A stretch of DNA of 64,000 nucleotides from Saprospiraceae bacterium. Lineage in GTDB: Bacteria > Bacteroidota > Bacteroidia > Chitinophagales > Saprospiraceae. The stretch is taken from assembly GCA_035654115.1 (NCBI GenBank), contig DASRXQ010000029.1:29187-93186 (forward strand), written 5' to 3'. Position 1 is the first letter of the stretch. Each line of letters begins with the position of its first letter. Below the pieces are notes generated by a model that was not told where the DNA came from, made no database searches, and saw only the letters and a list, made by a program, of their open reading frames with translations. Positions 1,842 through 36,948 of the stretch are shown here, piece after piece. Position numbers and translations under genes: made by a program.

Positions 1842-2321
1842 TTATTTATCCGTTCGCTTGAGTTGCCAGTAAAATTCAAATGAGGCAACCATTTGTCCAG
1901 CCTGATCATGAGCTGTAACGGGTAATGAAATGGTAAAAGTTTCTCCCGGACTATTCAGTGTTCTCAATTTACGTTCCACTTCCTGACCGGAATGGCAAAA
2001 ATAGAAACTTTTACCTCTTACTTTTTTTAAAAATTCACCTTTCACACCTGTTAAAATATATTTTATATTAGTACCTGATACATAGGCATGTATAAGAGCA
2101 CCAGTGCTTAATTCAGCCGCCATTCCCATCACTGCCCAGAATACTGACCCAAATGGGTTCCGGATCCAAAACCGGTCCTCCAGCACCACCTTGCATCCGT
2201 TTTCATCCAGGGATTCGATTTTCATACCCGATATCATCCCCATCGGAAGCCTCCTCAACATCCACAATCGCATCTTCCATGGATTGGTCAATTGACGGGC
2301 GATGTTTTTATTAAATGACAT
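1842..2321 (-). CDS. DUF4442 / hotdog-fold (PaaI-like thioesterase) family protein
   Basis: The sequence from MSFNKNIARQLTNPWKMRLWMLRRLPMGMISGMKIE onward resembles DUF4442. I place the start at ATG 2321, because the upstream 23 codons of the ORF track only translate a heptamer repeat array. Confidence 0.6.
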   Translation of the reverse strand: MSFNKNIARQLTNPWKMRLWMLRRLPMGMISGMKIESLDENGCKVVLEDRFWIRNPFGSVFWAVMGMAAELSTGALIHAYVSGTNIKYILTGVKGEFLKKVRGKSFYFCHSGQEVERKLRTLNSPGETFTISLPVTAHDQAGQMVASFEFYWQLKRTDK

Positions 2322-2337
2322 CAGTAGTGAATAATAA

Positions 2338-2400
2338 GTAACGAATAACGAATAACGGGTAACAAGTAACGAGCAACGAGCAACGAGCAACGAGCAACGC
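2338..2400. repeat. Degenerate 7-nt-period array, 9 units (GTAACGA/ATAACGA/GCAACGA)
   Basis: Read directly as gtaacga ataacga ataacgg gtaacaa gtaacga gcaacga x3 gcaacgc. It is the inverted partner of 2521-2574. Confidence 0.9.
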
Positions 2401-4755: not shown

Positions 4756-4786
4756 CTCACTCACTATTCACTACTCACTACTGACT
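4756..4786. repeat. 7-nt-period array (TCACTAT/TCACTAC) abutting the stop of the 4787-5458 gene
   Basis: Reads ctcac tcactat tcactac tcactac tgact. The minus-strand stop codon is at 4787-4789. Confidence 0.85.
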
Positions 4787-5458
4787 TCATTTGTTCCCAT
4801 TATAGAACAATAACGTCAATCCATACCTGATCCATTTATCCTTTCCTGCATCCATTTCGGTTTTCAACATTTCAGATAATGGACCCAGGTCATAATATTT
4901 TGTGGGTAACACCATATATGGTTGCATTGCAAAATCAATATTTGAGTTGCCACTAAATGTCAGCATCAGGTAAAATTTAAACGCCATCATATGCTGATTA
5001 TTTTTGAAAGTAGTTTTCGCCTCTTCATCAACATATTTCACTTTATAAAATTGATATTGAAGATCTGTGCCAAATCCCCAAAACCCATCTCCTGCCTGGT
5101 AACCTATAGCTCCGCTTTGTATTGAAAAACTTAGTTTGTCAGTATACTTATTTGCCGTTCCAGGAAATGATCCTGTTGCATGTAAGGACTTATTGGCTCC
5201 CTGGTATGTCAGCTCAAGTGCATGCATTCCAACCTTACCGCGGAGTCCTGCTTCAAATCCATGTGCCCATCGAAGATTACCGAATGGTTTGGTATAAGAT
5301 TGTGATGAATTGAAATCTGATATCAGCCGGTCCAGGGCCGGATTGGATAAAATGGAAAAATTGTAACCTGTCTTCAGGTTAAGCTGGGCATAAGCTGGTG
5401 AGGAGAGAAAACCAAAAAATGCCAAAAGCAAGATAGAAATTGCTCTCAGGCAGTCCAT
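4787..5458 (-). CDS. Hypothetical signal-peptide protein, outer-membrane beta-barrel-like
   Basis: It has the signal peptide LLLAFFGFLSSPAYAQ and alternating beta-strand-like, Gly/aromatic-rich sequence. I recognised no specific family. Confidence 0.5.
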   Translation of the reverse strand: MDCLRAISILLLAFFGFLSSPAYAQLNLKTGYNFSILSNPALDRLISDFNSSQSYTKPFGNLRWAHGFEAGLRGKVGMHALELTYQGANKSLHATGSFPGTANKYTDKLSFSIQSGAIGYQAGDGFWGFGTDLQYQFYKVKYVDEEAKTTFKNNQHMMAFKFYLMLTFSGNSNIDFAMQPYMVLPTKYYDLGPLSEMLKTEMDAGKDKWIRYGLTLLFYNGNK

Positions 5459-5620: not shown

Positions 5621-7537
5621 ATGGCGAAAACGACAATTAAGAAGAAACCGGGAAAAGTTAAAAGTAAAAACCCATCTTTCTCAAACCTGGATTTTACACC
5701 GGGATTCTGGAGGCGGCACTGGAAGGAAGCAATCATAATACCTGTCCTTGCCTTCGCATTGTACTGGATGTCCCTGCCTTATGGATATGTCCTTGATGAT
5801 CAGATTGTCATCACAGGAAATGACTATACAAAAAAAGGCTTTGGGGGTATTTGGGAAATTCTCAGTACAGAAAGTTTTTCCGGTTATTTTCATGGCCAGC
5901 AGGACCTTGTAGCGGGGGCACGTTACAGGCCGCTTTCCATTATTTCTTTTGCTGTTGAGCAATCCGTTTTTGGAGACAACCATATCGAACGGCATTTTGT
6001 AAACATCCTTCTTTACGGCATTCTTGGATTACTGATATTCAGGGTCCTGTGTATTCTCTTTCCTGAGAAAGAATCGAGGAATTGGCTTACTGCGATTCCC
6101 TTTCTGGCCATTGTTTTGTGGATGCTTCATCCGGTCCATTCAGAAGTTGTAGCCAATATTAAAGGGCGGGATGAGATCATGACCACTTTCGGAGCGATGG
6201 GTTCACTTTATTTCGTTCTCCGATACCTCTCATCCAAAAAAATGCTTTGGCTTATTTCAAGCGGTATCTGCATGTTCCTTGGATTGATGGCGAAAGAAAA
6301 TGCGATCACGTTCATGGCAGTCATTCCGATGACCATGTATTTTTTCACCAATGCAAAGACAAAAGATTATGTAGCTGCGCTTATTCCATCTCTCATCGCA
6401 GTGATTATCTACATGATCATACGTACCAATGTCATTGGTTATGTATTTGATAGTGGTAAAAAAATCGTTGACCTTATGAATGACCCTTTCATCGGGATGA
6501 ATTCCGGTGAACGATATGCAACTATTCTTTATACACTCGGTGAGTATATCCGGCTGTTGATTTTTCCGCATCCGCTCACCCATGATTATTATCCTTATCA
6601 TATCCCAATCATGAATTTTGGAAAACCAGGTACACTGATATCACTGGCGATATACCTTGGACTTGCGTTTGTATTTTTCAGGTTGTGGAAAAAGAAAAGT
6701 ATTTATGCCTGGGCCATTGGATTTTTTATTGCTACCGTTTCCATTGTTTCAAATTTATTTTTCCCGGTAGGTACATTCATGAATGAACGGTTCATCTTCA
6801 TTCCTTCGATTGCATTCTCTGTAGTATGTGCATGGGCTTTTGTAAAACATGGCTTAAGCTCATCAAATAAAGTAATCCGTACAGGATCAATTGTCTTCAT
6901 CATCGCATTGATAGGAGCTTATATATTCAAAACTTATGTTCGCGTTCCGGCATGGAAAGATTCACTCAGTCTCAATGGCCAGGCTGCGATGGTTTCTGTC
7001 AATAGTGCCAGGAATAATTGTTTCATGGGAACCGCTCTCTTTGAAGAAGCCCGTGAGGTGACAGATCCTGTGAAGAAAAAAGAATTGCAGGAACAGGCAG
7101 AATATTATGTAGACAAATCCCTGGCGATGTATCCGACTTACAATTCTGCTAATCAAATCAAATCGGGACTCGTGGCTGAGCGATATCTCAGGGATGGAGA
7201 TCTGCCAAGATTGCTTGATGATTTTATGAAAATCCTTGATGCGAAAGCACAGACTGAATATGTCCCGCAGTTTCTTGATTATCTCAATAAGCAGGCACCG
7301 AAAGAAACCATGGTGGATTTTTATTATAGGGCGGGATATGAACTCCTGACCAAAACGAAACATGAATATCCAGCAGCAGTTACAATTCTAAAGCTTGGAG
7401 AACAAATTGCCCCTGATGATCCAAGGATACTATATGGTCTTGGCAAGGCTTTTTATTTAGGCGGTGACCAGGTACAGGGCACGAAATATCTTGACCGGGC
7501 TTATCAGATCAATCCGGGATTGAGGAATGTACAATAG
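5621..7537 (+). CDS. Multi-pass membrane protein with C-terminal TPR repeats (GT-C / PMT-TMTC-like putative glycosyltransferase)
   Basis: The N-terminal roughly 430 aa hold many TM helices, with an early loop motif YVLDDQIVI. The C-terminal roughly 180 aa are TPR-like (YGLGKAFYLGGDQVQGTKYLDRAYQINP). Confidence 0.6.
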   Translation: MAKTTIKKKPGKVKSKNPSFSNLDFTPGFWRRHWKEAIIIPVLAFALYWMSLPYGYVLDDQIVITGNDYTKKGFGGIWEILSTESFSGYFHGQQDLVAGARYRPLSIISFAVEQSVFGDNHIERHFVNILLYGILGLLIFRVLCILFPEKESRNWLTAIPFLAIVLWMLHPVHSEVVANIKGRDEIMTTFGAMGSLYFVLRYLSSKKMLWLISSGICMFLGLMAKENAITFMAVIPMTMYFFTNAKTKDYVAALIPSLIAVIIYMIIRTNVIGYVFDSGKKIVDLMNDPFIGMNSGERYATILYTLGEYIRLLIFPHPLTHDYYPYHIPIMNFGKPGTLISLAIYLGLAFVFFRLWKKKSIYAWAIGFFIATVSIVSNLFFPVGTFMNERFIFIPSIAFSVVCAWAFVKHGLSSSNKVIRTGSIVFIIALIGAYIFKTYVRVPAWKDSLSLNGQAAMVSVNSARNNCFMGTALFEEAREVTDPVKKKELQEQAEYYVDKSLAMYPTYNSANQIKSGLVAERYLRDGDLPRLLDDFMKILDAKAQTEYVPQFLDYLNKQAPKETMVDFYYRAGYELLTKTKHEYPAAVTILKLGEQIAPDDPRILYGLGKAFYLGGDQVQGTKYLDRAYQINPGLRNVQ

Positions 7538-7579
7538 GCAATTGGCAATAGGCAATTGGCAAAAAATCAAAAGGCAATT
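7537..7579. repeat. 7-nt-period array GGCAATT/GGCAATA starting at the G of the TAG stop codon
   Basis: Reads (ta)g gcaatt ggcaata ggcaatt ggcaaaa ... ggcaatt. Confidence 0.85.
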
Positions 7580-7616
7580 AGAAGTAGTATTAAAACGGAT
7601 TGCTGAAGGCAAACAA

Positions 7617-7666
7617 CAATGATCCTGAAGGGATTAGACATTATTAGCCATGGGTGAAATCCATGA
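7617..7666. repeat. Two-hairpin module (atcc-tgaa-ggat, then catgg-gtgaaat-ccatg), copy 1
   Basis: caatgatcctgaagggattagacattattagccatgggtgaaatccatg is homologous to 10126-10176. Confidence 0.75.
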
Positions 7667-10245: not shown

Positions 10246-11433
10246 ATGTCAATACGATCTTCATTCCTCCGTCACATAGCACAAACATCTTCTGATCCTG
10301 ATGGATTTGAGGTGGTAAGAGGTGAGGGAATTTTCCTTTATAACAAAGACGGAAATGCCTTCATCGATTGTATCTCCGGCATTTCGGTATCCTCTCTCGG
10401 ACACAATCATCCAAAAATCATCGATGCCATCCGTCATCAGCTGGACCTTCATCTCCACACGCATGTCTATGGCGAGCATATCACCATTCCACAAGTTGCA
10501 TTAGGAGAAAAATTAGCAGAACTTCTTCCACCATCACTCCGCACATCTTATTTCACAAACTCCGGAGCAGAAGCTGTCGAAGGTGCATTAAAGCTTGCCA
10601 GGAAATACACAGAACGGTATGACATCATCGCATGCCGGCATGCATATCATGGCAGTACAGCAGGAGCAGAGAGTTTGAGAAGTGATATTGCTCATACATC
10701 TTCTTTCAGGCCGATGGTACCCGGCATTCATCATATCAATTTCAATTCATTCGATGATATCAATACCATCACTGAGAAAATCGCAGCCGTCATCATCGAA
10801 CCTATCCAGGGAGAAGCGGGTGTGATCATTCCTGTTGATGGTTATCTCGCAGCTTTAAAAAAGAAATGCAAGGAGATGGGTGTACTGCTCATCTTTGATG
10901 AAATACAAACTGGCATGGGCCGCACAGGCAGCATGTGGGCATTCGAACAGGAAGATGTGATCCCGGATATTCTTCTTTTAGCAAAATCATTCGGAGGCGG
11001 GCTGCCATTAGGAGCATTTATTTCGAGTGAAGAAATCATGCATGTGCTTTCACATGATCCACCACTTGGCCACTTAACTACTTTCGGAGGAAATGCATTG
11101 AGCTGTGCCGCGAGCCTTGCAGCTATACAAATCATCACAGAAGAAAATCTTCCTGGAAAAGCAATTGCCTTAGGTAAAAAAATAAGAGACTCCTTAATCC
11201 ATCATCCGGTTATCCGTGAGATCAGAAACCGTGGATTGATGATGGCCATCGAACTTAAAAATCCTGATCATTTGCATGCAGCAGTCAAAGCCTGTAAAGA
11301 AGAAGGATTGCTGGTGGATTGGTTTTTGTTCAATAACCGGTCGATAAGACTAGCGCCGCCACTTGTCATTAATGAAGATGAAATTGATATAATGTGTGAA
11401 AAGATGTGGAAAGCACTTGATACAATTCATTAA
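10246..11433 (+). CDS. Class-III (acetylornithine/ornithine-type) PLP aminotransferase
   Basis: 395 aa with SGAEAVEGALKLARK, FDEIQTGMGRTG and the PLP-lysine context LLAKSFGGGLPLGAF. Confidence 0.85.
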   Translation: MSIRSSFLRHIAQTSSDPDGFEVVRGEGIFLYNKDGNAFIDCISGISVSSLGHNHPKIIDAIRHQLDLHLHTHVYGEHITIPQVALGEKLAELLPPSLRTSYFTNSGAEAVEGALKLARKYTERYDIIACRHAYHGSTAGAESLRSDIAHTSSFRPMVPGIHHINFNSFDDINTITEKIAAVIIEPIQGEAGVIIPVDGYLAALKKKCKEMGVLLIFDEIQTGMGRTGSMWAFEQEDVIPDILLLAKSFGGGLPLGAFISSEEIMHVLSHDPPLGHLTTFGGNALSCAASLAAIQIITEENLPGKAIALGKKIRDSLIHHPVIREIRNRGLMMAIELKNPDHLHAAVKACKEEGLLVDWFLFNNRSIRLAPPLVINEDEIDIMCEKMWKALDTIH

Positions 11434-19413: not shown

Positions 19414-19543
19414 GGATGCTGGATAAAAGGATGCCGGATGCCGGACTCATGACGCAATAGGGTCGAACCTGTAGTTATGAAGCTCTTAAAGCGTCCCTTG
19501 TGATTCTAGAGTCCAGCATCCGGCATCCCTAAATCCGGCATCC
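19414..19543. repeat. MITE-like element: 35-nt imperfect inverted repeats built from GGATGCC heptamers, flanking 60 nt
   Basis: The left arm is ggatgctggataaaaggatgccggatgccggactc (19414-19448). The right arm is gagtccagcatccggcatccctaaatccggcatcc (19509-19543). Confidence 0.8.
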
Positions 19544-19591
19544 ATCTGTCATCGCCACGCTTACTGTTTCACTGATTATTACCTTCGCCTC

Positions 19592-25101: not shown

Positions 25102-27114
25102 ATGAAAACATTGCTCCCTCTCATTATCATTTTCTGTACGTCATTTACTTTTTCCTACAGCCAGGACACCAAAGTCAAATACGGAAAAGTATCCCCCGCA
25201 GACCTCGCCATGAAAGTCTATACCCCTGATACAGAAGCGGTAGCTGTGGTACTTTCTAAAATAGGATATATGCGGTATGATGTCCTCCAGGAAACATATA
25301 CCGTCACCGAAGACAGGCACGTCGTCATCAAAATACTGACCGAAGCCGGCATCGATGAATTCGGAAACATAGAAATTCCATACTATGCTCATAACAATTA
25401 CTCCAAAGTGGGCAATATCAAAGGAATCGTCCATCTCCCGGATGGAACTGACATCAAGGTGGACAACAGCCAGATCTTCGATGAGGAAACCAACGATTAC
25501 TGGTCAGCAAAAAAAATAGCTTTCCCCGGCCTGGTGAAAGGCGCCATCATCGAATACCAATACACGTACAACCAGAGCAGCATGTTCCAGCCGGTAGACT
25601 GGTTTTTTCAGAGTCACATCCCTATCCGGTATGCAGAGTTGAAAACAAAATTTCCGGATTGGTTCGAATATGTCATTCTTACACAAGGTCTGCCCCTTGA
25701 TAAAAGAGACCGGGATGAAAATCTTGAAACCATCAACTTTACCACTACTACAAGAAGTGAAGGCCTTTCTGTCAGCAATCAAATCAATAATAATTCCGTC
25801 AATGTAAATTTTATCACGAATACGTATGTCAACCAGGCTGTGCCTGCATTGAAGGAAGAATGTTGCATCACCACGATGGAAGATTACTACAGCAGGATTC
25901 GCTACCAGTTGCAATCTATCCAGTATCCAAATCGGGCGAGAGAACCTGTATTGAATTCGTGGGAAAAATTAGCTGCCGAATTATACCAGGTTCCTGAATG
26001 GGGAGAGCAGTTTAAAAATAAACGTCCGGGTTCTTTGGTGCTGGAAGCTGCAGGCATCACCGTCGATACATCTGTCAATCAATTGGTGACCGCACAAAAG
26101 ATCTATGACTATATCAATGCCAACATTCAGTGGAACGACATGCAAAGTTATGGCGCAAGAAAAGATATCGCCTCCATTCTGAAAGCAAAATCCGGTAACA
26201 GCGGCGACCTCAATAAGCTGATGTGCGCAGCATTGACCCAGGCCGGCATCGATGCACAACCCGTATTGGTCAGTACACGTGACAATGGTAAGCCACAGGA
26301 ACTCTATCCATTCATCGATCAGTTCAATCATATGGTAGTCGTCGCCAATATAGAAGGCAAGGATATGTGGTTTGATCTCGGTGATGAACATCTTCCCATA
26401 GGCTTGTTGAGATCAGACGTATTAAATGCAAGAGGCTGGCTCGTAGATGAAAAAGATCCTGTGTGGCTTGACATCATACCACCTACAAGCAATTCAACAT
26501 ACCTGATCAATGGTACTCTCGATAAAGAAGGCAACATAGTCGGGTCCATTGAATCCAGGCATACCGGCTATCATGCGGCAGAACAAAGGACCGACGTGGA
26601 AAATCAGAAAGAAATGTTCGGACAACACCTGTTGATGACGGGTACCACACCTGTAAAGCTTTCAGATTTTGAAATGACAAATAAAAAAGAAACTTCGAAG
26701 CCATTCCAGGTAAAAGCTACTATCAGTAACCAATCGATAGCAACAGCGACCCCGGATAAAATATATCTGAACCCCATTTTTCCAAATGGCCTGGATGAAA
26801 TTCCATTTAAGCTTGTGGAAAGAACGTATCCCATTGAGATGAACTATCCTGAGGAAATCACAATGATCATAAACCTGACACTACCTGAAGGTTATAAAGT
26901 TGAATCTACTCCGGAGCCTATAAAATTTGTCACTGCAAATAACGGGATACTGGCTTCATACAATTCTTCACAAACACCGGGCAAAATAAATGTTACGATG
27001 AAATATGTGCTTAAGCAATTACTTTTTAATCCGGAAGAATATATTGCATTGAAAAACTTCTATATCCAACGCCATCAAAAATTTAATGAACAAATTGTGT
27101 TAACGAAAATCTGA
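25102..27114 (+). CDS. DUF3857 / transglutaminase-like / DUF3858 protein (core Cys replaced by Leu)
   Basis: 670 aa. The N-terminal block is KVKYGKVSPADLAMKVYTPDTEAVAVVL. The central core SGDLNKLMCAAL...FNHMVVV has L where the transglutaminase Cys is expected. Confidence 0.7.
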   Translation: MKTLLPLIIIFCTSFTFSYSQDTKVKYGKVSPADLAMKVYTPDTEAVAVVLSKIGYMRYDVLQETYTVTEDRHVVIKILTEAGIDEFGNIEIPYYAHNNYSKVGNIKGIVHLPDGTDIKVDNSQIFDEETNDYWSAKKIAFPGLVKGAIIEYQYTYNQSSMFQPVDWFFQSHIPIRYAELKTKFPDWFEYVILTQGLPLDKRDRDENLETINFTTTTRSEGLSVSNQINNNSVNVNFITNTYVNQAVPALKEECCITTMEDYYSRIRYQLQSIQYPNRAREPVLNSWEKLAAELYQVPEWGEQFKNKRPGSLVLEAAGITVDTSVNQLVTAQKIYDYINANIQWNDMQSYGARKDIASILKAKSGNSGDLNKLMCAALTQAGIDAQPVLVSTRDNGKPQELYPFIDQFNHMVVVANIEGKDMWFDLGDEHLPIGLLRSDVLNARGWLVDEKDPVWLDIIPPTSNSTYLINGTLDKEGNIVGSIESRHTGYHAAEQRTDVENQKEMFGQHLLMTGTTPVKLSDFEMTNKKETSKPFQVKATISNQSIATATPDKIYLNPIFPNGLDEIPFKLVERTYPIEMNYPEEITMIINLTLPEGYKVESTPEPIKFVTANNGILASYNSSQTPGKINVTMKYVLKQLLFNPEEYIALKNFYIQRHQKFNEQIVLTKI

Positions 27115-29069
27115 TGCGCTTCATGAAATTCGCCCTTGCTGTTTTGATATGCTTCATGACTATTATATTCTCCTTCAGTCAGAATACAAAAGTTAAGTTT
27201 GGAGTCGTGACGCCTGAAGATCTCGCCATGAAGGTGTACACTCCTGATACGGAAGCTGTAGCTGTCATCCTCGCAAAAACAGGATATATCGAATATGACC
27301 CGCTTGCCGGGGCATATCCGCTGACTGAAGAAAAACATTACATCATCAAGATCCTCAAAGAAGCGGGTATCAATAAGTATGGCAACGTAGAGATTAATTA
27401 TTATTCCTACAATAAACGAACTGATGTTTCAGGCATTAAAGCGATGGTCCATCTTCCCGATGGTACTGAAATCAAAATCAGCAATGACCAGGTATTCGAT
27501 GAAAAGAAAAGCGAATTCTGGTCTTCTAAAAAATTTGCTTTTCCAAAACTGATCACCGGGGCTGTCATTGAATATCAATACACCATCCACTCCTATGACA
27601 GATTCCATCCTGTAGATTGGTTTTTCCAGGCCGAGATCCCTATCGTGTATGCAGAACTGGAAACAAAAATTCCGGAAACCTATGATTACGTGGTTTTGAC
27701 CCAGGGCACACTGGTGGATAAAAAAGAAGATGGCGCCAAACCGGGACCCGCAGGTATAAAAAAGCAGGGAATAAAAGTATATATCAATGAAGACGTGCCT
27801 GCATTAAAAAAAGAAAGCTACATCACGACCATGGAAGACTATTATACCCGTATACGCTATCAGCTTCAGTCTGTCCAGTATCCTGGATCACACAGGGAGC
27901 AGATATTGGATACATGGGATAAGCTTGCTCAAGGACTATATGAAATCCCGGAATGGGGAGGACAATTCAAAAATAAACGGCCCGGCGAACTGGTATTGAA
28001 AGCTGCCAATATCACACCCGGAACCGATACCTCTCAAATGGAAACTGCGCAAAAATTATATGATTACATTAATCAGAATTTTCAATGGAATGGAAAATAT
28101 AATATTAGTACGCAAAAAGATATCGTCGCGATACTAAAAGCAATGTCCGGTTCCAGCGGTGATCTCAACAAATTGATGTGTGCCGCCTTGCAGCAAAGTG
28201 GCATCGTTGCAAAACCTGTTCTGATCAGTACGCGGGACCACGGCAAGCCACTGGAATTATATCCGTTCACAGACCAGTTTAATCACATGGCGGTCCTTGC
28301 AACTATTGATGAAAAGGATTACTGGCTGGATATGGGTGATAAAAATCTTCCTCTGGGTGCTTTAAGAAAAAATGCATTGAATACGAGAGGATGGATAGCA
28401 GATGAAAAAAATCCTTCATGGACTGATATCGTTCCTGTCAACAGCAAATCCGTTTTCGTCATCAAAGGAAGCCTGGATGAAAATGGTAATCTCAATGGTG
28501 CCATCGAAACACGCTTCACCGGGTATCACGCAATGGATAAAAGAAATATGCTGGATGAGAAAAAAGAATTTGGCGACCACCTTATGGTTAGCGGTTCGTC
28601 TCCGATAAAAGTATCAGGCCTGGAAATCATCCATGCAAATGATGTCTCACAGCCTCTTCAGATAAAGGCAAATGTTGTGGATCAATCCATCGGAACTGCA
28701 ACACCTGACAAAATATACCTGAATCCAATATTTCCGGAAGGTCTTGATGAAATTCCTTTCAGGCTTGAGAAAAGGACATATCCTATAGAGATGAACTACC
28801 CTTCTGAAGTTTCCATGATGTTAAATGTAGCTTTACCGGAAGGATATACTATAGAATCCCTGCCATCACCAATTCGGTTTGCGAACAGTACCGGTGGCAT
28901 CCATGTAATTTATGATGCCGCTCTTGTGGCTGATAAATTAAATATCACCATTAAATACGTAGTCAAGCAAACTTATTTCGAACCCGAAGAGTATACAACA
29001 TTGAAATCTATTTTTAATAAACGAAAGGAAAAGTTTAATGAGCAAATCGTATTGACAAAAACCAAATGA
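27114..29069 (+). CDS. DUF3857 / transglutaminase-like / DUF3858 protein, close paralog (core Cys replaced by Leu)
   Basis: It shares a TGATG stop/start overlap with the upstream gene. It is colinear with and highly similar to 25102-27114. The core is SGDLNKLMCAAL...FNHMAVL. Confidence 0.7.
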   Translation: MRFMKFALAVLICFMTIIFSFSQNTKVKFGVVTPEDLAMKVYTPDTEAVAVILAKTGYIEYDPLAGAYPLTEEKHYIIKILKEAGINKYGNVEINYYSYNKRTDVSGIKAMVHLPDGTEIKISNDQVFDEKKSEFWSSKKFAFPKLITGAVIEYQYTIHSYDRFHPVDWFFQAEIPIVYAELETKIPETYDYVVLTQGTLVDKKEDGAKPGPAGIKKQGIKVYINEDVPALKKESYITTMEDYYTRIRYQLQSVQYPGSHREQILDTWDKLAQGLYEIPEWGGQFKNKRPGELVLKAANITPGTDTSQMETAQKLYDYINQNFQWNGKYNISTQKDIVAILKAMSGSSGDLNKLMCAALQQSGIVAKPVLISTRDHGKPLELYPFTDQFNHMAVLATIDEKDYWLDMGDKNLPLGALRKNALNTRGWIADEKNPSWTDIVPVNSKSVFVIKGSLDENGNLNGAIETRFTGYHAMDKRNMLDEKKEFGDHLMVSGSSPIKVSGLEIIHANDVSQPLQIKANVVDQSIGTATPDKIYLNPIFPEGLDEIPFRLEKRTYPIEMNYPSEVSMMLNVALPEGYTIESLPSPIRFANSTGGIHVIYDAALVADKLNITIKYVVKQTYFEPEEYTTLKSIFNKRKEKFNEQIVLTKTK

Positions 29070-30967
29070 CAAGCTACATTAAAAAATATTTTTGGCTCAT
29101 TGCTATATGCTGGCCTGTAGTGATATGGAGCCAGGACAAGCCCCAGTATTCAGTATTGCTGATCGATACTGCATTGCTTAAAAATGCGCAGGCAGTCATA
29201 CGTTTCGAAGAAACACATTATATCATAGAATCTCCACGGGAATATATACAGCAAGGTTTCACAGCGGTAAGTATTTTCAATGAAGATGCAAGTGCTTCTT
29301 ACATCAGCATTCCATATGATAAATACAATAAAGCTGAACTAACCAATATCGTCTTATATGATGCATGGGGCAATGTGCTGAGAAAAGTAAAAAAATCAGA
29401 GCTAACTGATCATGCCAGGTATAGCGATATCACTTTTCTGAGTGATGACCGGTTTATAGGATTCAGATCATTTGGAGGTCAGCTCCCTTATACGTTAGAA
29501 TATGAATGGAAAATAACCCATGCGCAAACGATGACCTATCCTGCCTGGAGACCACTGAGTAATGGTGAATCTGTAGAAAAATCCATTTTCGTACTTGAAA
29601 CACCGTCCGATCTTGTCGTCCATACAAAAATATTGAATAATGCTTTTGAATATGTTGAAACATTCCGGGAAGGAATACGATTGCAAACATGGACATTACT
29701 AAAGAAGGGTGCACTTCAACGTGAAGCCTCAGGACCGTCGGCGTATGATTTATTTCCCATGCTGCTGATGACGCCATCTACATTCCAGGTAGAAGATTAT
29801 TCGGGCAGCATGACTGACTGGAAATCATTTGGTGCATTTCTTTACACCTTAAATAAGGATAAGGAAAAGATGCCCCCGGAGATGATTGATCTTATCCATC
29901 AGATGACTGCACATTTCGATACGCCGAAAGAAAAGATTGACACACTCTATCATTGGCTTCAGAAAAATATGAGATATGTAAGTGTGCAGCTGGGTGTAGG
30001 TGGCTGGCAATCTTTTGATGCCGCTTATGTTGAAAAAAACAGGTATGGGGATTGCAAGGCATTATCGACTTTCATGAAAGGTATGCTTAGGGAAATTGGA
30101 ATTGAATCATTCCAGGTAATCATCAAATGGGATGAAGAAGAGGCTTTATTTGCGGATGATTTTATGTACTCTGATTTCAATCACATGATGGTGCATATCC
30201 CATCAGAAAATATGTGGCTGGAATGTACCAGCAATTACCTGCCAACAGGTTTTATTGACAGGGATGAAGAGAATAAAAAAGTTTTACTGATCACTCCCGA
30301 AGGTGGAAAAATAAGCCGAACTCCTTCCTCACCTGATTCTCTAAACAGGATAACTACTACTGACACTATTTTCACAGGCCAGCCGGTTATATTAAAAGGA
30401 AGAGCAGAATATCGTGGAAACCTTCAGCGAAGAATTAGAAGCTTATTTTATTATTCGTCGCAAGAAGAGCAACGAAAATCTTTCCTTGAACATTTTCATT
30501 TACAAATTCAGAAGCTTGATCATTTACATATTTCTTCTTCAACATCAGGCTTATCGTCGGCGATGGATTACAATGCCACGCTTAGTCAATTTGGTTCTGC
30601 ATCGGGTATCCGGTATTTCATTCCTGTAAATTCGATTCAGCCTCCTCGAAACTCCTGTACCGGGAATACGGATCGAAAAACAGATTTTATTTCAAGGGAT
30701 GATTTCACAGAAACAAATGATATTTATATTTCTATACCTCCAGGCTATGAGATAGAATATTTGCCTGCAAAATCTGCATTTGAATTCCGGGGCAATCAAT
30801 ATGCGGTGGAATTAATGGTAGAGAATAAATTCATCCATGTCCATCATCAGGTCACAGAATCCCCGATGCGATTAACCCCGGCGGAATACATGGGTTTGTG
30901 TAATTATTATACATCAGTTGCAAAATCGAATGGCCAGATGATTGTTTTGAAAAAATCGAAGACGTAG
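29066..30967 (+). CDS. DUF3857 / transglutaminase-like / DUF3858 protein, diverged paralog that keeps the GDC core
   Basis: It shares an ATGA overlap with the upstream gene. The core is RYGDCKALSTFMKGMLREIGIE...FNHMMVHI...WLE. Confidence 0.7.
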   Translation: MTSYIKKYFWLIAICWPVVIWSQDKPQYSVLLIDTALLKNAQAVIRFEETHYIIESPREYIQQGFTAVSIFNEDASASYISIPYDKYNKAELTNIVLYDAWGNVLRKVKKSELTDHARYSDITFLSDDRFIGFRSFGGQLPYTLEYEWKITHAQTMTYPAWRPLSNGESVEKSIFVLETPSDLVVHTKILNNAFEYVETFREGIRLQTWTLLKKGALQREASGPSAYDLFPMLLMTPSTFQVEDYSGSMTDWKSFGAFLYTLNKDKEKMPPEMIDLIHQMTAHFDTPKEKIDTLYHWLQKNMRYVSVQLGVGGWQSFDAAYVEKNRYGDCKALSTFMKGMLREIGIESFQVIIKWDEEEALFADDFMYSDFNHMMVHIPSENMWLECTSNYLPTGFIDRDEENKKVLLITPEGGKISRTPSSPDSLNRITTTDTIFTGQPVILKGRAEYRGNLQRRIRSLFYYSSQEEQRKSFLEHFHLQIQKLDHLHISSSTSGLSSAMDYNATLSQFGSASGIRYFIPVNSIQPPRNSCTGNTDRKTDFISRDDFTETNDIYISIPPGYEIEYLPAKSAFEFRGNQYAVELMVENKFIHVHHQVTESPMRLTPAEYMGLCNYYTSVAKSNGQMIVLKKSKT

Positions 30968-31114: not shown

Positions 31115-31356
31115 CTACAGAGATTTCGCTCCTAAGGAGCTTTGAACACACTTCCTGAAAAATATCCTTGTTCATTTTTGTTTCTGCGAATACAAAGCTC
31201 ACAATTTGAATGTAACAATAGTCGATAAAGCTCCGTAGGAGCGGAATATCTGTAGAAACAGAATGAGCAAATAGTTTTTTTGAGCTCCATCGGAGCGGAA
31301 TATCTGTAACAACGAATCACGAAGGGAATGTTGAGCTCCATCGGAGCGGAATATTC
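31115..31356. repeat. REP-like array: four copies of a GCTCC-N3-GGAGC hairpin plus GGAATATCTGTA tail (one inverted, three direct at a 51-54-nt period)
   Basis: The copies are ctacagagatttcgctcctaaggagcttt (31115-31143, inverted), aaagctccgtaggagcggaatatctgtag (31228-31256), gagctccatcggagcggaatatctgtaac (31282-31310) and gagctccatcggagcggaatattc (31333-31356). Confidence 0.85.
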
Positions 31357-32660: not shown

Positions 32661-32673
32661 TAAAGATAAAAAA

Positions 32674-32867
32674 GGATGCTGGATTAAAGGATGCCGGATT
32701 CCGGACTCTAGACGTAGACGATTTTAGATGGTTGCTTAGCTGTAGCACGAGGATGAGTGAAGCAGGTCAAAGCATTCGATTTATTTTTTCGCAATTAAGG
32801 AGACGCGATGCTTCGACTTGCTAATTCACTGCCTTGGGCTACAGCTCAGCAACAAAATCGACGTCTC
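32674..32867. repeat. Second copy of the GGATGCC-heptamer arm, followed by a nested imperfect hairpin of about 150 nt
   Basis: ggatgctggattaaaggatgccggattccggactc (32674-32708) closely matches 19414-19448. gacgattttagatggttgcttagctgtagc (32717-32746) pairs with gctacagctcagcaacaaaatcgacgtc (32838-32865). The inner pair is agcaggtcaaagcat (32761-32775) with atgcttcgacttgct (32808-32822). Confidence 0.75.
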
Positions 32868-32884
32868 AACAACCAATCAATTAT

Positions 32885-32933
32885 TACTCACGTTTCACGC
32901 CTCACGCCTCACGTTTTCACCACTCACTATTCA
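32885..32933. repeat. 7-nt-period array (CTCACGY/TTCACGC/TCACTAT) abutting the gltA stop codon
   Basis: The sense (minus) strand reads TAG tgaatag tgagtgg tgaaaac gtgaggc gtgaggc gtgaaac gtgagta. Confidence 0.85.
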
Positions 32934-34259
32934 CTATTTGTCTTTTCTCGCTTCCACCCAGTTTTTCATCCATTCATACGTGAGTGACTTGGGTCGTTCA
33001 AGAGGCAGACTAAGGATGCGGCTCCAGCAAGTGGAAGCTAATACTCCGAGTGCACGGGAGACAGCGAAGAGTACTGTGTAATAATTATGTTCCTTCAATC
33101 CATAATGGACGAGGATGGCTCCTGAATGTGCATCTACATTGGGCCATGGGTTTGCAACTTTACCAAGAGAGCCAAGGATTTTAGGTGCGACTTCAAAAAC
33201 TTTCCAGACAATATTTACAATATCATCATCGGGCATATGTTGTTGCGCAAATGCCTGTTGTGCAAGAAACCTGGGATCCGGTTTGCGCAAAACAGCATGA
33301 CCATATCCGGGGATCACTTTGCCTTGTGCGAGGGTTTCGTTGATGTATTGGCCTATTTGTTCAGTGGTTGGTTTTGATGTGCCCAGGTGATCGACCATTT
33401 CAAAGATCCATTTGATCACTTCCTGGTTAGCCAATCCATGTAGAGGGCCGGCAAGTGCATTTACGCCTGATACAAAAGAATAATATACATCGCTCAGTGT
33501 CGAACTGGCCAGGTGTACTGCATGTGCACTTGCATTTCCTCCTTCGTGATCGGCATGAAGTGTCATGTAGAGACGCATCAGACTTTCAAAGTTGGGGTCA
33601 TCGGTGACACCCAGCATGTGTGCATAGTTAGCTGACCAGTCAAGGTTATCATCCGGGGAGATATGTTCATTATTCTTAAATGTCCGCCGATAGATGTATG
33701 CTGCAACCTGTGGAAGACACGCGATGAGATTCATAGAGTCTTCATATGTGGCATCCCAGTAATCACGTTTATTCATCCCTTCAGAATATCGCCGTGAAAA
33801 CTCGCTTTTAGCCTGCAGGGATAAAACAGCGATCCCCAATTGTGTCATTGGGTGGGTGTCGGGATCAAGACTGTCGAGAACCTTCCAGGTTCCTTCGGGA
33901 ATCTGTCGTCTCCGCTCCCATTCGTTGCTGAGCCAGTTGACTTCTTCTTCAGTAGGTATATCGTCGGTAAGCATTAGCCAGAACAGGCCTTCTGGCAATG
34001 GTTCGCCTCCACGGGAGGGTAGTTTTGTTTTAAGTTCCGGGATTGAATAGCCCCTGAACCGGATGCCTTCATTTGAATCCAGTAAGGAGGTTTCCCAGAG
34101 CATGCTTTTGATGCCTCTCATTCCGCCGAAGACCTGGCCGATCGTGACCTGATCGATGATGGTTTCATCATGCTCTTTCATGAATGGCTTCATTTCCGCG
34201 ATGGAAGCCATGGCTTTCTCGTAAAATTTTGATTTCAGTCTGTCCATGGGAGTGGTCAA
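32934..34259 (-). CDS. gltA: Citrate synthase
   Basis: 441 aa with the signature GYGHAVLRKPDPR and conserved His/Asp context (LHADHEGGN). Confidence 0.93.
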   Translation of the reverse strand: MTTPMDRLKSKFYEKAMASIAEMKPFMKEHDETIIDQVTIGQVFGGMRGIKSMLWETSLLDSNEGIRFRGYSIPELKTKLPSRGGEPLPEGLFWLMLTDDIPTEEEVNWLSNEWERRRQIPEGTWKVLDSLDPDTHPMTQLGIAVLSLQAKSEFSRRYSEGMNKRDYWDATYEDSMNLIACLPQVAAYIYRRTFKNNEHISPDDNLDWSANYAHMLGVTDDPNFESLMRLYMTLHADHEGGNASAHAVHLASSTLSDVYYSFVSGVNALAGPLHGLANQEVIKWIFEMVDHLGTSKPTTEQIGQYINETLAQGKVIPGYGHAVLRKPDPRFLAQQAFAQQHMPDDDIVNIVWKVFEVAPKILGSLGKVANPWPNVDAHSGAILVHYGLKEHNYYTVLFAVSRALGVLASTCWSRILSLPLERPKSLTYEWMKNWVEARKDK

Positions 34260-34295
34260 GAGTAATGTAAAATTCTGTTTCGCTAAGGTAGTACT

Positions 34296-34330
34296 GATTT
34301 TGGATTTAAGATTTTAGATTTTGGATAGAA
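34296..34330. repeat. 7-nt-period array GATTTTG/GATTTAA/GATTTTA upstream of gltA
   Basis: Reads gattttg gatttaa gatttta gattttg gatagaa. Confidence 0.8.
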
Positions 34331-34529
34331 AAGGGCATTTAAAGTCATGAAAACAGGGATTATTTTTTCTGAAATAATTGGAAGAATCTAATAACCAAGG
34401 CGTTTTTAAGCATTTCATTTAGGCAAAATGCGAAATGATTTTTCACTCAGAGCTGATGACTCCTTCAAGGGATTTTCTTCCATAATCCCCAATAAGTTGT
34501 AAGTCGGCATTCATGAATACCTTTGTATC

Positions 34530-35105
34530 ATGATTGCTATTGATGATGTCCTGTTAAGTGATGAAGTGGTGACAGCCAAATTTGTCTGTGATCTTGACGC
34601 CTGTCATGGAGCCTGTTGCTGGGAAGGAGAGTGGGGAGCTCCGCTTTTAGAAGAAGAGCTTGCTATCATTGAATCCGTTTGGGAGAAAGTTGCTCCCTTA
34701 TTGAGTGAAGAAAGCCGGAAAGCCGTGGCAAAGAAAGGATTCGGGACACACTATGGGGATGAAGGAGAAGTCCTGGGCACTCCGTTGATCAAAAACGGAG
34801 CCTGTGCATATCTTATCTGGGACGGAAAAGGCATCGGGAAATGTGCGTTTGAGCAGGCATATGAAAAAGGAATGATCGATTGGCCAAAACCGATTTCATG
34901 CCACTTATATCCGATCAGGGTGAAATATCTGAAAAATGGAACAGAAGCCTGGAATTACAACAAATGGAAGATATGTGCTCCCGCCTGCAAGAATGGAAAG
35001 AAACATGATGTGCCACTTTATAAATTCTTGAAAGGTGCAATTGTTCGTGCTAAGGGTGAAGCGTTTTATGAAATGCTTGATGCTTGTGCACAGGGAGTTG
35101 AGTAG
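34530..35105 (+). CDS. DUF3109 family Cys-rich protein
   Basis: The N-terminus IDDVLLSDEVVTAKFVCDLDACHGACCWEGEWGAPL is typical of DUF3109. Confidence 0.7.
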   Translation: MIAIDDVLLSDEVVTAKFVCDLDACHGACCWEGEWGAPLLEEELAIIESVWEKVAPLLSEESRKAVAKKGFGTHYGDEGEVLGTPLIKNGACAYLIWDGKGIGKCAFEQAYEKGMIDWPKPISCHLYPIRVKYLKNGTEAWNYNKWKICAPACKNGKKHDVPLYKFLKGAIVRAKGEAFYEMLDACAQGVE

Positions 35106-35174
35106 TGAGCCGTGAGCTGTGAGTAGTAAGAAGTAAGAAGTAAGAAGTGAGCCGTGAGTAGTGAGTAGTGAGCA
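35105..35174. repeat. 7-nt-period array, 10 exact-phase units GTRAGNN, starting at the G of the TAG stop
   Basis: Reads gtgagcc gtgagct gtgagta gtaagaa gtaagaa gtaagaa gtgagcc gtgagta gtgagta gtgagca. Confidence 0.92.
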
Positions 35175-35280
35175 AAAAACTAAACTCTCTAAACTTATGA
35201 TGCCGAAGGCAACATATTTAAACTCACTAAACACTCTCTCTTGGACAAGCTTTCAAAATAAAATGATCACCGAATACTGA

Positions 35281-36948
35281 TTACTCTTTTATTTCTCTCA
35301 ATTCCCGGCGCAGGATCTTTCCCACATTCGATTTCGGCAATGAATCCCTGAATTCTATTTCTTTGGGCATCTTATACGCCGTCAGGTTTTCTTTACAATA
35401 TTCAAGCAATTCGTTTTTGGATAGGCTTTTATCTTTTTTCACCACGAATAATTTCAATACTTCCCCACTCTTCTCATTGGGAATACCTACAGCTGCACAT
35501 TCCTTGATCTTTGGATGCGCACATACTACTTCTTCAATTTCATTCGGGAATACTTTGAATCCGGATACAATGATCATGTCCTTTTTGCGATCCACGATGC
35601 TTAAAAATCCATCTTCATCCACAATACCGATATCACCTGTGCATAACCAACCATCACGAATTGTATTGGCAGTCTCAACAGGCTTGTTGTAATAACCCGC
35701 CATCACCTGCGGGCCTTTCACCTGCACCTCTCCACGCTGTCCTGTAAGCTGAACGATCCCATTGTCATCCACAATGCGAATATCCGTCGAAGGAACAGGC
35801 AATCCAACTGTGCCGATGCGCGCCGTACCATCAATCGGATTGACAGATACTACCGGTGACGCTTCCGTCATGCCATACCCTTCGATCAGGTCGCTGCCGG
35901 TCACAACTTTCCATCGATCATTCACTGATTTCTGAACAGCCATGGCACCACCCACAGCAAATTTAAACTGGCTGAAATCAAGAGCAGCAAATTCTTTTAC
36001 ATTGAGCATGGCATTGTAAAGTGAATTCACTCCTGTCATTACAGTGATCCGGTGATTCTTAAATTCCTTGATTACTGATTTGATGTCACGCGCATTCGTC
36101 ACCAAAACATTCATTGAACCATAAGACATCATTGCCAGGCAATTGACGATGAATGCAAAAATATGATACATCGGTAGAGGGCACAACGTGATTTCTTCAC
36201 CTTCCTTAAGCCTGGTATCAAGACAACCTTTGATCTGAAGCATATTAGCTACAATGTTACGGTTCGTCAGCATTGCTCCTTTTGCTACACCTGTCGTCCC
36301 ACCCGTATATTGGTGAGCAATTACCTTATCAGGTTCATCCTCGAAAGGTTTGATGGTAAAATTTTTACCCTGTGCAATAGCTTCTTTAAAGGTTACTGTG
36401 TTAGCGATTGAAAATTTCGGAACCATCCGTTTCACATTCCGGACTACAAAATTGACAATGCTTCCTTTGACAGGCCCGAGAAGTTCGCCGATGCTGGTCA
36501 GAATGACCGTTTCAACCTGGGTCTCCCCGATCACTTCCTGAAGATGGGATGCAAAATTTTCAACGATGATAATTCCGCGGACACCACTGTCTTTTAACTG
36601 GAACAGCAATTCGCGTGGTGTATAAAGCGGATTCGTATTGACTACTACAAGACCAGCCCTGATACAGCCGAATAATGCAATCGGGTATTGTAAGAGGTTA
36701 GGCATCATGATCGCCACCCTGTCACCCGGTTTCAGGCCTCGCGACTGAAGATATCCGGCAAGCTGCCTTGAAGCCCTGTCCATCTCTCCATAGGTGATAG
36801 TTTTACCCATGCAATAGAATGCAGTTTTGTCTGCAAACTTTTCCATCGCTTCGTTTAAAAAGCTATTGAGGTTTGGATATTGGTCTACATCAATATTGGC
36901 AGGAAGACCTTTAGGATAATGCTTTAGCCAGGGGCGCGAATCAGTCAT
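35281..36948 (-). CDS. fadD: Long-chain fatty acid-CoA ligase (AMP-binding family)
   Basis: 555 aa with the AMP-binding motif YTGGTTGVAKGAMLTNRN, plus GYGMTE and GWLCTGDIG. Confidence 0.88.
   Translation of the reverse strand: MTDSRPWLKHYPKGLPANIDVDQYPNLNSFLNEAMEKFADKTAFYCMGKTITYGEMDRASRQLAGYLQSRGLKPGDRVAIMMPNLLQYPIALFGCIRAGLVVVNTNPLYTPRELLFQLKDSGVRGIIIVENFASHLQEVIGETQVETVILTSIGELLGPVKGSIVNFVVRNVKRMVPKFSIANTVTFKEAIAQGKNFTIKPFEDEPDKVIAHQYTGGTTGVAKGAMLTNRNIVANMLQIKGCLDTRLKEGEEITLCPLPMYHIFAFIVNCLAMMSYGSMNVLVTNARDIKSVIKEFKNHRITVMTGVNSLYNAMLNVKEFAALDFSQFKFAVGGAMAVQKSVNDRWKVVTGSDLIEGYGMTEASPVVSVNPIDGTARIGTVGLPVPSTDIRIVDDNGIVQLTGQRGEVQVKGPQVMAGYYNKPVETANTIRDGWLCTGDIGIVDEDGFLSIVDRKKDMIIVSGFKVFPNEIEEVVCAHPKIKECAAVGIPNEKSGEVLKLFVVKKDKSLSKNELLEYCKENLTAYKMPKEIEFRDSLPKSNVGKILRRELREIKE

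Follow-up and report, generated by a model that had tools for sequence, protein, structure and literature searches.

Tandem heptanucleotide arrays at gene ends of a Saprospiraceae genome: strand-polar intergenic microsatellites probably generated by slippage

The stretch analysed here (the window) comprises 64,000 nt of contig DASRXQ010000029.1 from a Saprospiraceae bacterium. The gltA-anchored loci of species-representative genomes place this organism in the Candidatus Opimibacter clade (Bacteroidota), which is known from wastewater metagenome-assembled genomes. Tandem arrays with a period of 7 nt lie at the ends of several of its genes, and the array that follows the DUF3109 gene, at 35099-35174 on the plus strand, is the focal one. 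According to Pfam, the gene at 1842-2321 (minus strand) encodes a DUF4442 protein; 2575-4593 (minus) is uvrB; 5621-7537 (plus) encodes a PMT_2-family glycosyltransferase; 32934-34247 (minus) is the citrate synthase gene gltA; 34530-35105 (plus) encodes the DUF3109 protein; and 35281-36948 (minus) encodes an AMP-dependent ligase. The gene at 4787-5458 (minus) carries no functional assignment. A preliminary description, made from the sequence alone, had called the product of 5621-7537 a TPR membrane protein, but this gene matches only PMT_2 in Pfam and no TPR.

The focal array holds about 10.9 units of the types TGAGNNG, GTGAGNN and GTAAGAA, and its sense strand is G-rich and C-poor. Its periodicity begins 4 nt ahead of the TAG stop codon of DUF3109 (35103-35105). 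The gltA array (32885-32938, minus) reads TAGTGAA and TAGTGAG, and further on GTGAGGC twice, in the sense direction; it overlaps the TAG stop of gltA and is split by a 1-nt phase slip (32914-32916) into sub-arrays at 32888-32913 and 32917-32938. A GGCAATW array (7532-7579, plus) overlaps the TAG (7535-7537) of the PMT_2-family gene, with 4.4 clean units followed by degenerate remnants. Directly 3' of the TGA stop of gene 4787-5458 lies an array of sense type AGTGAGT (4756-4786, minus), and an array of sense type GTAACGA (2521-2579, minus), whose distal third is degenerate, overlaps the TAA stop of uvrB. This uvrB array has an inverted partner across a spacer of about 140 nt, a GTAACGA/GCAACGA array at 2329-2400 (plus), which is G-rich on the plus strand and is separated by 17 nt from the start of DUF4442 (2321, minus strand), on its upstream side. 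A GATTTTR array (34296-34330, plus) occupies the divergent gltA/DUF3109 promoter region.

Arrays were detected with Tandem Repeats Finder (TRF), with a self-match-run scan for periods 4-13 and with a scoring detector. For the focal array TRF gave a 7-nt unit in 10.9 copies (81% matches), and it found 5.3 copies at 2539-2575, 4.0 at 4759-4786 and 4.4 at 7532-7562; it also gave period-7 calls at 2339-2399, at 32887-32938 (two sub-arrays) and at 34296-34326. TRF and inspection of the sequence thus place the arrays of the preliminary description at, or within a few bases of, the positions given there, including those upstream of genes (given as 2338-2400 and 34296-34330). The period of 7 nt is real, but its description as strict was overstated, given the phase slip at gltA and the degenerate distal part of the uvrB array (2521-2538).

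The scoring detector found ten period-7 arrays in the window, and the count for each other period between 4 and 13 was 0-1. In 100 dinucleotide shuffles the period-7 arrays averaged 0.17, and no shuffle had more than 2. In the match-run scan period 7 gave 9-11 hits and each other period from 4 to 13 gave 0-2. The units run head to tail over lengths greater than chance, as in long simple sequence repeats. As first described, four of the five arrays listed 3' of genes are purine/U-rich and C-poor on the sense strand, nearly every unit in the window carries TGA, TAG or TAA, and a spurious open reading frame (ORF) containing LLTTHGSLLTSYFLLLTAHGSLL is present. Such spurious ORFs, and over-extended start calls also produced by the arrays, matter for annotation.

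Comparisons covered about 1.8 Mb of related loci, the window included. The clade set (346 kb) comprised the window and the 19 loci in which gltA identity reaches 82% or more; the distant set, 25 loci of more distant Saprospiraceae (387 kb); and the third set, 80 uvrB-anchored metagenome loci (1.08 Mb, 61-90% identity). Close relatives were represented by one genome, L134, whose DUF3109 protein is 98.4% identical, and the strain itself, to which every exact-protein match belonged, by four independent assemblies. The clade set contains 103 period-7 and 39 period-8 arrays, with 0-12 for each other period, and the distant set contains 8 and 2, respectively. The uvrB-anchored set has 41 period-7 arrays, unevenly spread: the majority of its loci lack them, and among the few rich ones is L063, which has 8- and 9-nt units. 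Array abundance is therefore lineage-specific and recurrent in scattered other lineages. Since some relatives bear 8- and 9-nt arrays, the preferred period differs between lineages and is not always 7. Octamer arrays (AAGGGCGG, CTATCAAC, TCTCACTT) were seen beside heptamers in L009-L015, for example at 5745-5818 of L014 and 8948-9023 of L010, and the 8- and 9-mer arrays of L063 (GGGTCATT) lie at 3029-3234. Two distant loci, L068 and L069, carry a repeat of a different, interspersed kind, in which a 9-nt unit, CAGGATTT(T/A), forms short runs about 150 nt apart over several kilobases (for example, L068 6886-11580); this repeat was left out of the array statistics.

Six arrays of the window touch a stop codon or run over it (gap between -7 and 0). 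The TAG codons of DUF3109 and of the PMT_2-family gene lie within the array periodicity, in agreement with the earlier observation that two arrays share the G of the stop. The zero gap described for five genes holds for gene 4787-5458; at DUF3109, 5621-7537, uvrB and gltA the stop is overlapped instead. Enrichment at 3' gene ends, which the preliminary description had set as a test of its proposal of a family tied to stop codons, was found: of the 137 array/stop-flank pairs, 49 have the array no more than 10 nt from the stop, whereas uniform placement predicts 20.9 (z = 7.1). Start flanks are depleted, with 9 arrays within 10 nt of a start against 14.8 expected. In the clade set, 29 of 46 stop-side arrays lie within 10 nt on either side of the stop, 22 of these 29 overlap it, and start-side arrays are spread across 14-235 nt from the start.

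Most period-7 arrays of the clade (82 of 103) are intergenic, and most of the apparently in-gene cases are ORF over-extensions or ORFs made by the arrays themselves. Arrays occur in 16 of 48 convergent, 19 of 52 divergent and 21 of 84 tandem intergenic regions, and regions with arrays are 2-3 times longer than those without. The proposal of a stop-tied family thus stands as to its strong enrichment at stops but is too narrow: divergent regions are as array-rich as convergent ones, and arrays present in every type of intergenic region do not form a stop-codon-specific family. Of 28 stop codons overlapped by an array, 22 are TAG or TGA, whereas these two codons make up 42% of the stops of other genes (p = 1e-4). 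The last codon and the stop are fitted to the unit by synonymous change, from caa-taa to cag-tga after gltA and from gaa-taa to gag-tag after DUF3109. The excess of TAG and TGA and these synonymous changes indicate that the array boundary is pinned by protein-coding constraint.

Array orientation is filtered relative to the adjacent gene: the sense strand is G-rich and C-poor on the stop side and G-poor upstream of starts. Strand bias relative to the upstream gene, also named as a test in the preliminary description, is seen in 42 stop-adjacent arrays with G>C on the sense strand against 4; the pooled sense composition beside stops is A 0.32, C 0.11, G 0.29 and T 0.27. This polarity wanes with distance from the stop and flips beyond 100 nt. 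Within 100 nt upstream of a start the skew is reversed (36 arrays against 5). Counted once per gene family, the polarity is 20:1 (p = 2e-5), and in the distant loci alone it is 18:2. On the top strand, intergenic regions tend toward a purine-rich array followed by a pyrimidine-rich one.

Several candidate sources of this polarity were rejected. Seeding of the arrays by stop codons does not account for the G>C skew, which is equally strong at out-of-register positions (G:C = 407:141; 39 arrays against 6). Background composition shows no skew after array-free stops; only the first 20 nt upstream of starts are skewed (+0.2 to +0.3, G-depleted sense strand), which accounts for at most part of the start-side polarity. 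As to an ascertainment bias of ORF calling, pyrimidine-oriented arrays hidden as C-terminal extensions were searched for and essentially none were found. An insulator loading Rho onto C-rich RNA is attractive since the C-rich strand faces inward at both gene ends, but it is not supported, because arrays are equally frequent in divergent regions, where no transcription enters, and because the rut-like arm lies beyond the spacer and would shift termination into the neighbouring gene. To our knowledge, Nostoc, in which repeats have the same polarity, has no Rho. Expansion through R-loops or outward transcription is contradicted by tandem regions, in which start-proximal arrays are C-rich in the read-through direction.

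Units turn over rapidly between relatives. Among 14 clade genomes with gltA at least 86% identical, 10 have an array starting from the gltA stop, with at least four unrelated units (GTGAGNN, GTATTCR, CAATAGG, AATTACG), and the other 4 have, in place of the array, a perfect bidirectional hairpin terminator in a 47-nt spacer. The 3' end of uvrB bears three unrelated arrays in the window, L049 and L050. The close relative L134 lacks the focal array and has a CCCCCTGAAAGGGG hairpin with a T-rich tail instead, and it keeps the upstream GATTTTR array at the same length with two substitutions. The preliminary description had held that free drift among close strains would speak against a conserved family; units and copy numbers do drift or vanish, but position often persists. 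Species-level relatives thus differ in length, unit and presence of arrays, while the four assemblies of the one strain are identical, which indicates that the arrays are not hypermutable on short timescales. Nor do they resemble phase-variable contingency loci, since they follow stop codons, their neighbours are uvrB, gltA, DUF3109 and a glycosyltransferase gene, and the strain's assemblies agree. Unit variants grade along the arrays, for example from AGTGAGC through ATAGAGC to ATAGGGC, as expected of slippage combined with mutation.

In independent short-read assemblies of the same strain (L131-L133), contigs end in or just past the GGCAATW array (about 7470-7605) and also within the array-containing uvrB/DUF4442 intergenic region (about 2370 of the window), so the arrays break short-read assemblies. 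At 11312-11510 of L045, the 3' arm of the gltA terminator and its T-tract are tandemly duplicated about four times with a period of about 24 nt (CCTGCCCCTACCTTTCTTTTTT), another sign of slippage-prone intergenic DNA in the clade.

The gltA-DUF3109 two-gene block (32934-35105, about 2.2 kb) is inverted in the window genome with respect to eight relatives, seven of them compared by tblastx synteny (L005, L006, L046, L009, L014, L047 and L011) together with L134. In these the order is FA_hydroxylase, DUF3109, gltA and AMP-ligase, and the flanking FA-hydroxylase and AMP-ligase genes keep their orientation in the window. The block is bounded on either side by a stop codon that a GTGAG-type array abuts, that of gltA at the left breakpoint and the focal array at the right one. 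The two arrays are inverted copies, matching best between 32917-32934 and 35154-35171 (18 nt at 89%). In some relatives with the ancestral order, L014 among them, both genes are followed by GTGA-type arrays. The simplest explanation of the inversion would be recombination or template switching between the inverted arrays. As the arrays coincide with a micro-inversion, they matter for the assembly and synteny analysis of Saprospiraceae metagenome-assembled genomes.

Tandem heptamers have been described in other bacteria. Mrázek, Guo and Shah (2007; as summarized in PMC4679880 and PMC4692102) reported long tandem repeats of 5-11-nt units beyond chance, with heptamers as the most abundant class in many bacteria. 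These repeats were biased towards intergenic DNA and scattered across the phylogeny, and their proposed origin was polymerase slippage. The arrays described here share with that class the tandem heptamers longer than chance, the intergenic bias and the scattered distribution. On the other hand, the survey did not include the Saprospiraceae lineage and its summaries mention neither stop abutment nor strand polarity.

Closer in its rules is the work of Rehm et al. (2015; PMC4692102) on the intergenic tandem heptamers GGGAATC of Xanthomonas and GGGGA(C/T)T of Nostoc. There the G-rich sequence falls on the coding strand at stop codons, over them or within 50 bp, and on the non-coding strand just upstream of ORFs; convergent inverted pairs are frequent, the neighbours are housekeeping genes, and sister species keep the intergenic sites while length and sequence vary extensively (PMC4692102). 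Xanthomonas transcripts start or stop at the heptamer repeats more often than at controls, and the function of the repeats was left unresolved (PMC4692102). The Saprospiraceae arrays follow the same polarity rule at stops, at starts and by gene family, and share the inverted pairs, the housekeeping neighbours and the turnover between species. In contrast, they involve more than 100 coexisting units and not a single one, divergent regions are not depleted, the host belongs to the Bacteroidota, and some relatives have 8- or 9-nt units. In addition, the G-tracts of the Rehm-type repeats (at least three G per unit) are absent: the window arrays have no GGG per unit, so a G-quadruplex cannot form. 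Tandem dimers of GGGAATC or GGGGAYT were not found in the 1.8 Mb.

Tandem dimers of CCCCAGT, TTGGTCA and CAACAGT, reportedly the units of the short tandemly repeated repetitive (STRR) sequences of heterocystous cyanobacteria, were likewise absent from the 1.8 Mb, and the host is a member of the Saprospiraceae, so these arrays are not STRR sequences. The latter are tandem heptanucleotide repeats dispersed in intergenic DNA (Mazel et al. 1990, cited in PMC4692102). TAACTGA repeats, described in Beggiatoaceae, Cyanobacteria and five Bacteroidetes, lie mostly a few nucleotides upstream of starts in forward orientation, and long arrays of mixed heptamers were also noted in Bacteroidetes (MacGregor 2015; PMC4679880). 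Arrays of that kind are missing in close relatives with the same neighbourhood, show indels in steps of 7 nt and break contigs, and a role in rearrangement was suggested (PMC4679880). The Saprospiraceae arrays are similarly intergenic, absent in close relatives and associated with contig breaks, but they are predominantly at stops, while TAACTGA is a single unit near starts; tandem TAACTGA dimers numbered zero in the 1.8 Mb. The arrays are therefore members of an already described class, the bacterial intergenic heptamer microsatellites, here in Saprospiraceae. What is new is that the positional and strand rules hold whatever the unit sequence and also apply in Saprospiraceae.

Taken together, the arrays are probably heptanucleotide microsatellites generated by slippage, without sequence-specific function, which fill unconstrained DNA at gene ends up to the coding boundary and are filtered for orientation; we hold this reading with moderate confidence. 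Units of 7 nt (8-9 nt in some relatives) would arise and change through replication slippage or unequal exchange, and would have proliferated in one Saprospiraceae lineage. Arrays would persist only in DNA left free by selection and would expand until they meet a constraint, which at the 3' end of a gene would be the encoded protein. Expansion up to that constraint would bring the periodicity to or across the stop codon and force the last codon to change synonymously. On the start side, the arrays keep a distance of 15-100 nt, which would leave the promoter and leader free. Long hairpins formed by inverted arrays of the same unit, and the use of such arrays as recombination substrates, would be side effects. 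Among the four roles listed in the preliminary description (all-frame stop buffer, binding platform, non-canonical termination signal and slippage-prone neutral DNA), the last fits best, and the buffer and the binding platform fit poorly.

Some observations weigh against this reading. The abutment to stops needs the additional assumption that arrays expand until constrained. The strand polarity of about 9:1 is not predicted by pure neutrality; it is kept in arrays that do not overlap the stop (19:1), and array-free intergenic DNA after stops has zero skew. An array is kept at the same gene end, at gltA and uvrB, despite complete replacement of its unit, and copy number does not differ among the four independent assemblies of the window strain. 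Array-bearing stops are followed by weaker local hairpins than other stops (median of the best hairpin -8.2 against -14.9 kcal/mol, p = 3e-4). Nor does this reading account for the preference for 7 nt. Finally, array-mediated inversion is something that we infer, since the present homology of the two arrays amounts to only 18 nt at 89%.

The polarity and the hairpin data bear on an alternative that we judge unlikely but the most substantial of those considered, in which the arrays are functional 3'-end elements that replace compact hairpin terminators in the formation or protection of mRNA 3' ends. In one variant, a G-rich array and its often C-rich inverted partner would form long 'zipper' hairpins able to pair in any 7-nt register; in another, the arrays would be hairpin-less pause, termination or exonuclease-blocking signals. 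The arrays occupy the sites of hairpin terminators of relatives, at gltA and at the DUF3109 gene of L134, and convergent regions that are 70-90% array hold no compact hairpin (for example, L047 8357-8429 and L009 11312-11567), which together with the weaker hairpins after array-bearing stops accords with replacement. Per intergenic region, however, the hairpin comparison gave no significant difference, and a mutual exclusion of arrays and hairpin terminators is suggestive only. A significantly complementary inverted partner was found for 12 of 31 stop-abutting arrays, and the uvrB/DUF4442 pair forms a long hairpin (RNA fold -63.2 kcal/mol, z = -4.28; duplex z = -9.0). The other 19, the focal array included, lack both a partner and structure; the focal array shows no inverted partner and no significant RNA structure (z = 0.02 against shuffles). 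The preliminary statement that the arrays are not hairpin terminators by themselves thus holds for the focal array; approximately one third of stop-abutting arrays do pair with an inverted partner. The arrays are not compact G+C-rich hairpins followed by a U-tract, as in intrinsic (Rho-independent) terminators. No terminator-like site was found 3' of uvrB, gene 4787-5458 or the PMT_2 gene, and Rfam covariance models gave no match at the gathering threshold anywhere in the window.

The order of a purine arm followed by a pyrimidine arm parallels the A-tract, stem and T-tract of bidirectional terminators, and in Xanthomonas transcript ends and starts are over-represented at heptamers (PMC4692102), both in favour of such 3'-end elements. 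Against them, divergent promoter regions, which need no terminator, are equally array-rich; close relatives do without arrays; and no unit is conserved.

That the arrays are instead arms or by-products of small mobile palindromic elements inserting at gene ends, of the kind of miniature inverted-repeat transposable elements (MITE) or repetitive extragenic palindromic (REP) sequences, appears quite improbable. Inverted array pairs do flank spacers, GTAACGA recurs at several loci, palindromes with GGATGCC arms are present at two loci, and a dispersed element (GCTTCGAC...GCTACAGCTCAGCAAC) lies in or beside arrays in the window, L008, L014 and L039. Most arrays nevertheless stand alone, each with its own unit, and lack a conserved core or conserved termini; the gradients of unit variants point to local growth; and in L008 the element is inserted into a pre-existing CAATAGG array and is not its carrier.

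A multivalent platform for an RNA- or DNA-binding protein with a 7-nt register, such as a HutP- or TRAP-like ring or a nucleoid protein, has very little probability. The strict, lineage-specific period, a polarity that suggests reading at the RNA level, and the correspondence of three units to two helical turns (TRF reports 21-nt super-periods) would suit it. But a sequence-specific platform is made unlikely by the units themselves: the consensus units of the 152 arrays are of more than 100 kinds, which share no motif and few of which recur (GTAACGA at several loci). Moreover, units are completely replaced at orthologous sites, relatives have 8- and 9-nt periods, and no candidate protein was identified.

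Selected all-frame stop buffers, catching read-through or frameshifted ribosomes, are just as improbable and are largely refuted by a shuffle test. In their favour, nearly every window unit has a stop, the periodicity often includes the real one, and stop density is 0.088 on the sense strand against 0.046 on the antisense. Against them, all three frames are closed by 24 of the 51 stop-abutting arrays, and permuting columns within the unit (composition and periodicity kept) gives 23.3 +/- 2.7; 21 of 51 close no frame or one, and 10 of 51 are free of stops. Of 295 units, only 60 place a stop in the register of the gene's own. The Xanthomonas unit GGGAATC has the same polarity with no stop in either orientation, and the mirror polarity of upstream arrays is inexplicable by translation. 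All-frame closure equal to that of shuffles indicates that the stops are a by-product of C-poor composition.

Other palindromes and hairpins occur near the arrays. One palindromic element, dispersed and about 50-170 nt long, combines the arms GTTGCTTAGCTGTAGC / GCTACAGCTCAGCAAC with a GCTTCGAC box; it lies at 32720-32870 of the window and also in L008 (about 2750-2800), L014 (about 3870-3960) and L039 (about 1800-1850); its region folds very stably (z = -4.4) and has no Rfam match. A palindrome at 19414-19545, in the spacer between the rotamase gene and the gene at 19592, has arms at 19414-19445 and 19510-19545 with 2-2.4 GGATGCC units, which enclose a core of about 60 nt; its left arm has a near-identical counterpart at 32664-32712, where the FA-hydroxylase gene follows downstream. 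The GGATGCC sequences at 19414 and 32674, which had been grouped with the arrays, do have the same period, but as arms of palindromic elements with only 2-2.4 tandem copies they are not arrays of the same kind.

Between convergent genes at 900-939 lies a perfect bidirectional terminator, AAAAAAGTACGGACAGGTCGCGACCTGTCCGTACTTTTTT, whose stem is reused at a different locus as the gltA/AMP-ligase terminator in L015 and L010 (about 11312-11358), which suggests a dispersed family of terminator hairpins. Short hairpins with CTGAAGG or CGAAGG loops (TTGCTGAAGGCAA, ATCCTGAAGGGAT, GCCGAAGGC, CCCCCTGAAGGGGG) occur in 3' flanks, at 7600-7640 and 35196-35210 of the window and 3' of DUF3109 in L010, L011, L015 and L134, and may be a local type of terminator. 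Just 3' of the FA-hydroxylase stop, a 54-nt tandem repeat (31229-31354; 2.4 copies, 81% identity) holds a GCTCC-ATCG-GAGC hairpin in each copy. The interval 25102-30967 contains three tandem paralogous genes encoding proteins of 633-670 residues with DUF3857 and transglutaminase-core domains.

The excess of heptamers in bacteria has been known since 2007 and their polarity at gene ends since 2015, and neither has yet been explained. The hundreds of arrays and many different units found here obey the same two rules, which rules out G-quadruplexes, stop codons and a single binding motif as the cause and narrows the question to two features, the period and the base skew (a sense strand poor in C after stops and poor in G ahead of starts). 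As the same rules apply to more than 100 non-G-quadruplex units in Bacteroidota and to single G-rich units in a gammaproteobacterium and a cyanobacterium, they are independent of unit and host. Then, we tentatively propose, as a possibility of low probability, that they reflect a general and so far undescribed process coupled to gene ends. If so, C-poor repeat RNA would have an orientation-dependent function at mRNA 3' ends, such as hairpin-less termination, 3'-end protection or terminator replacement; alternatively, a mutational mechanism would build the arrays directionally from gene boundaries.

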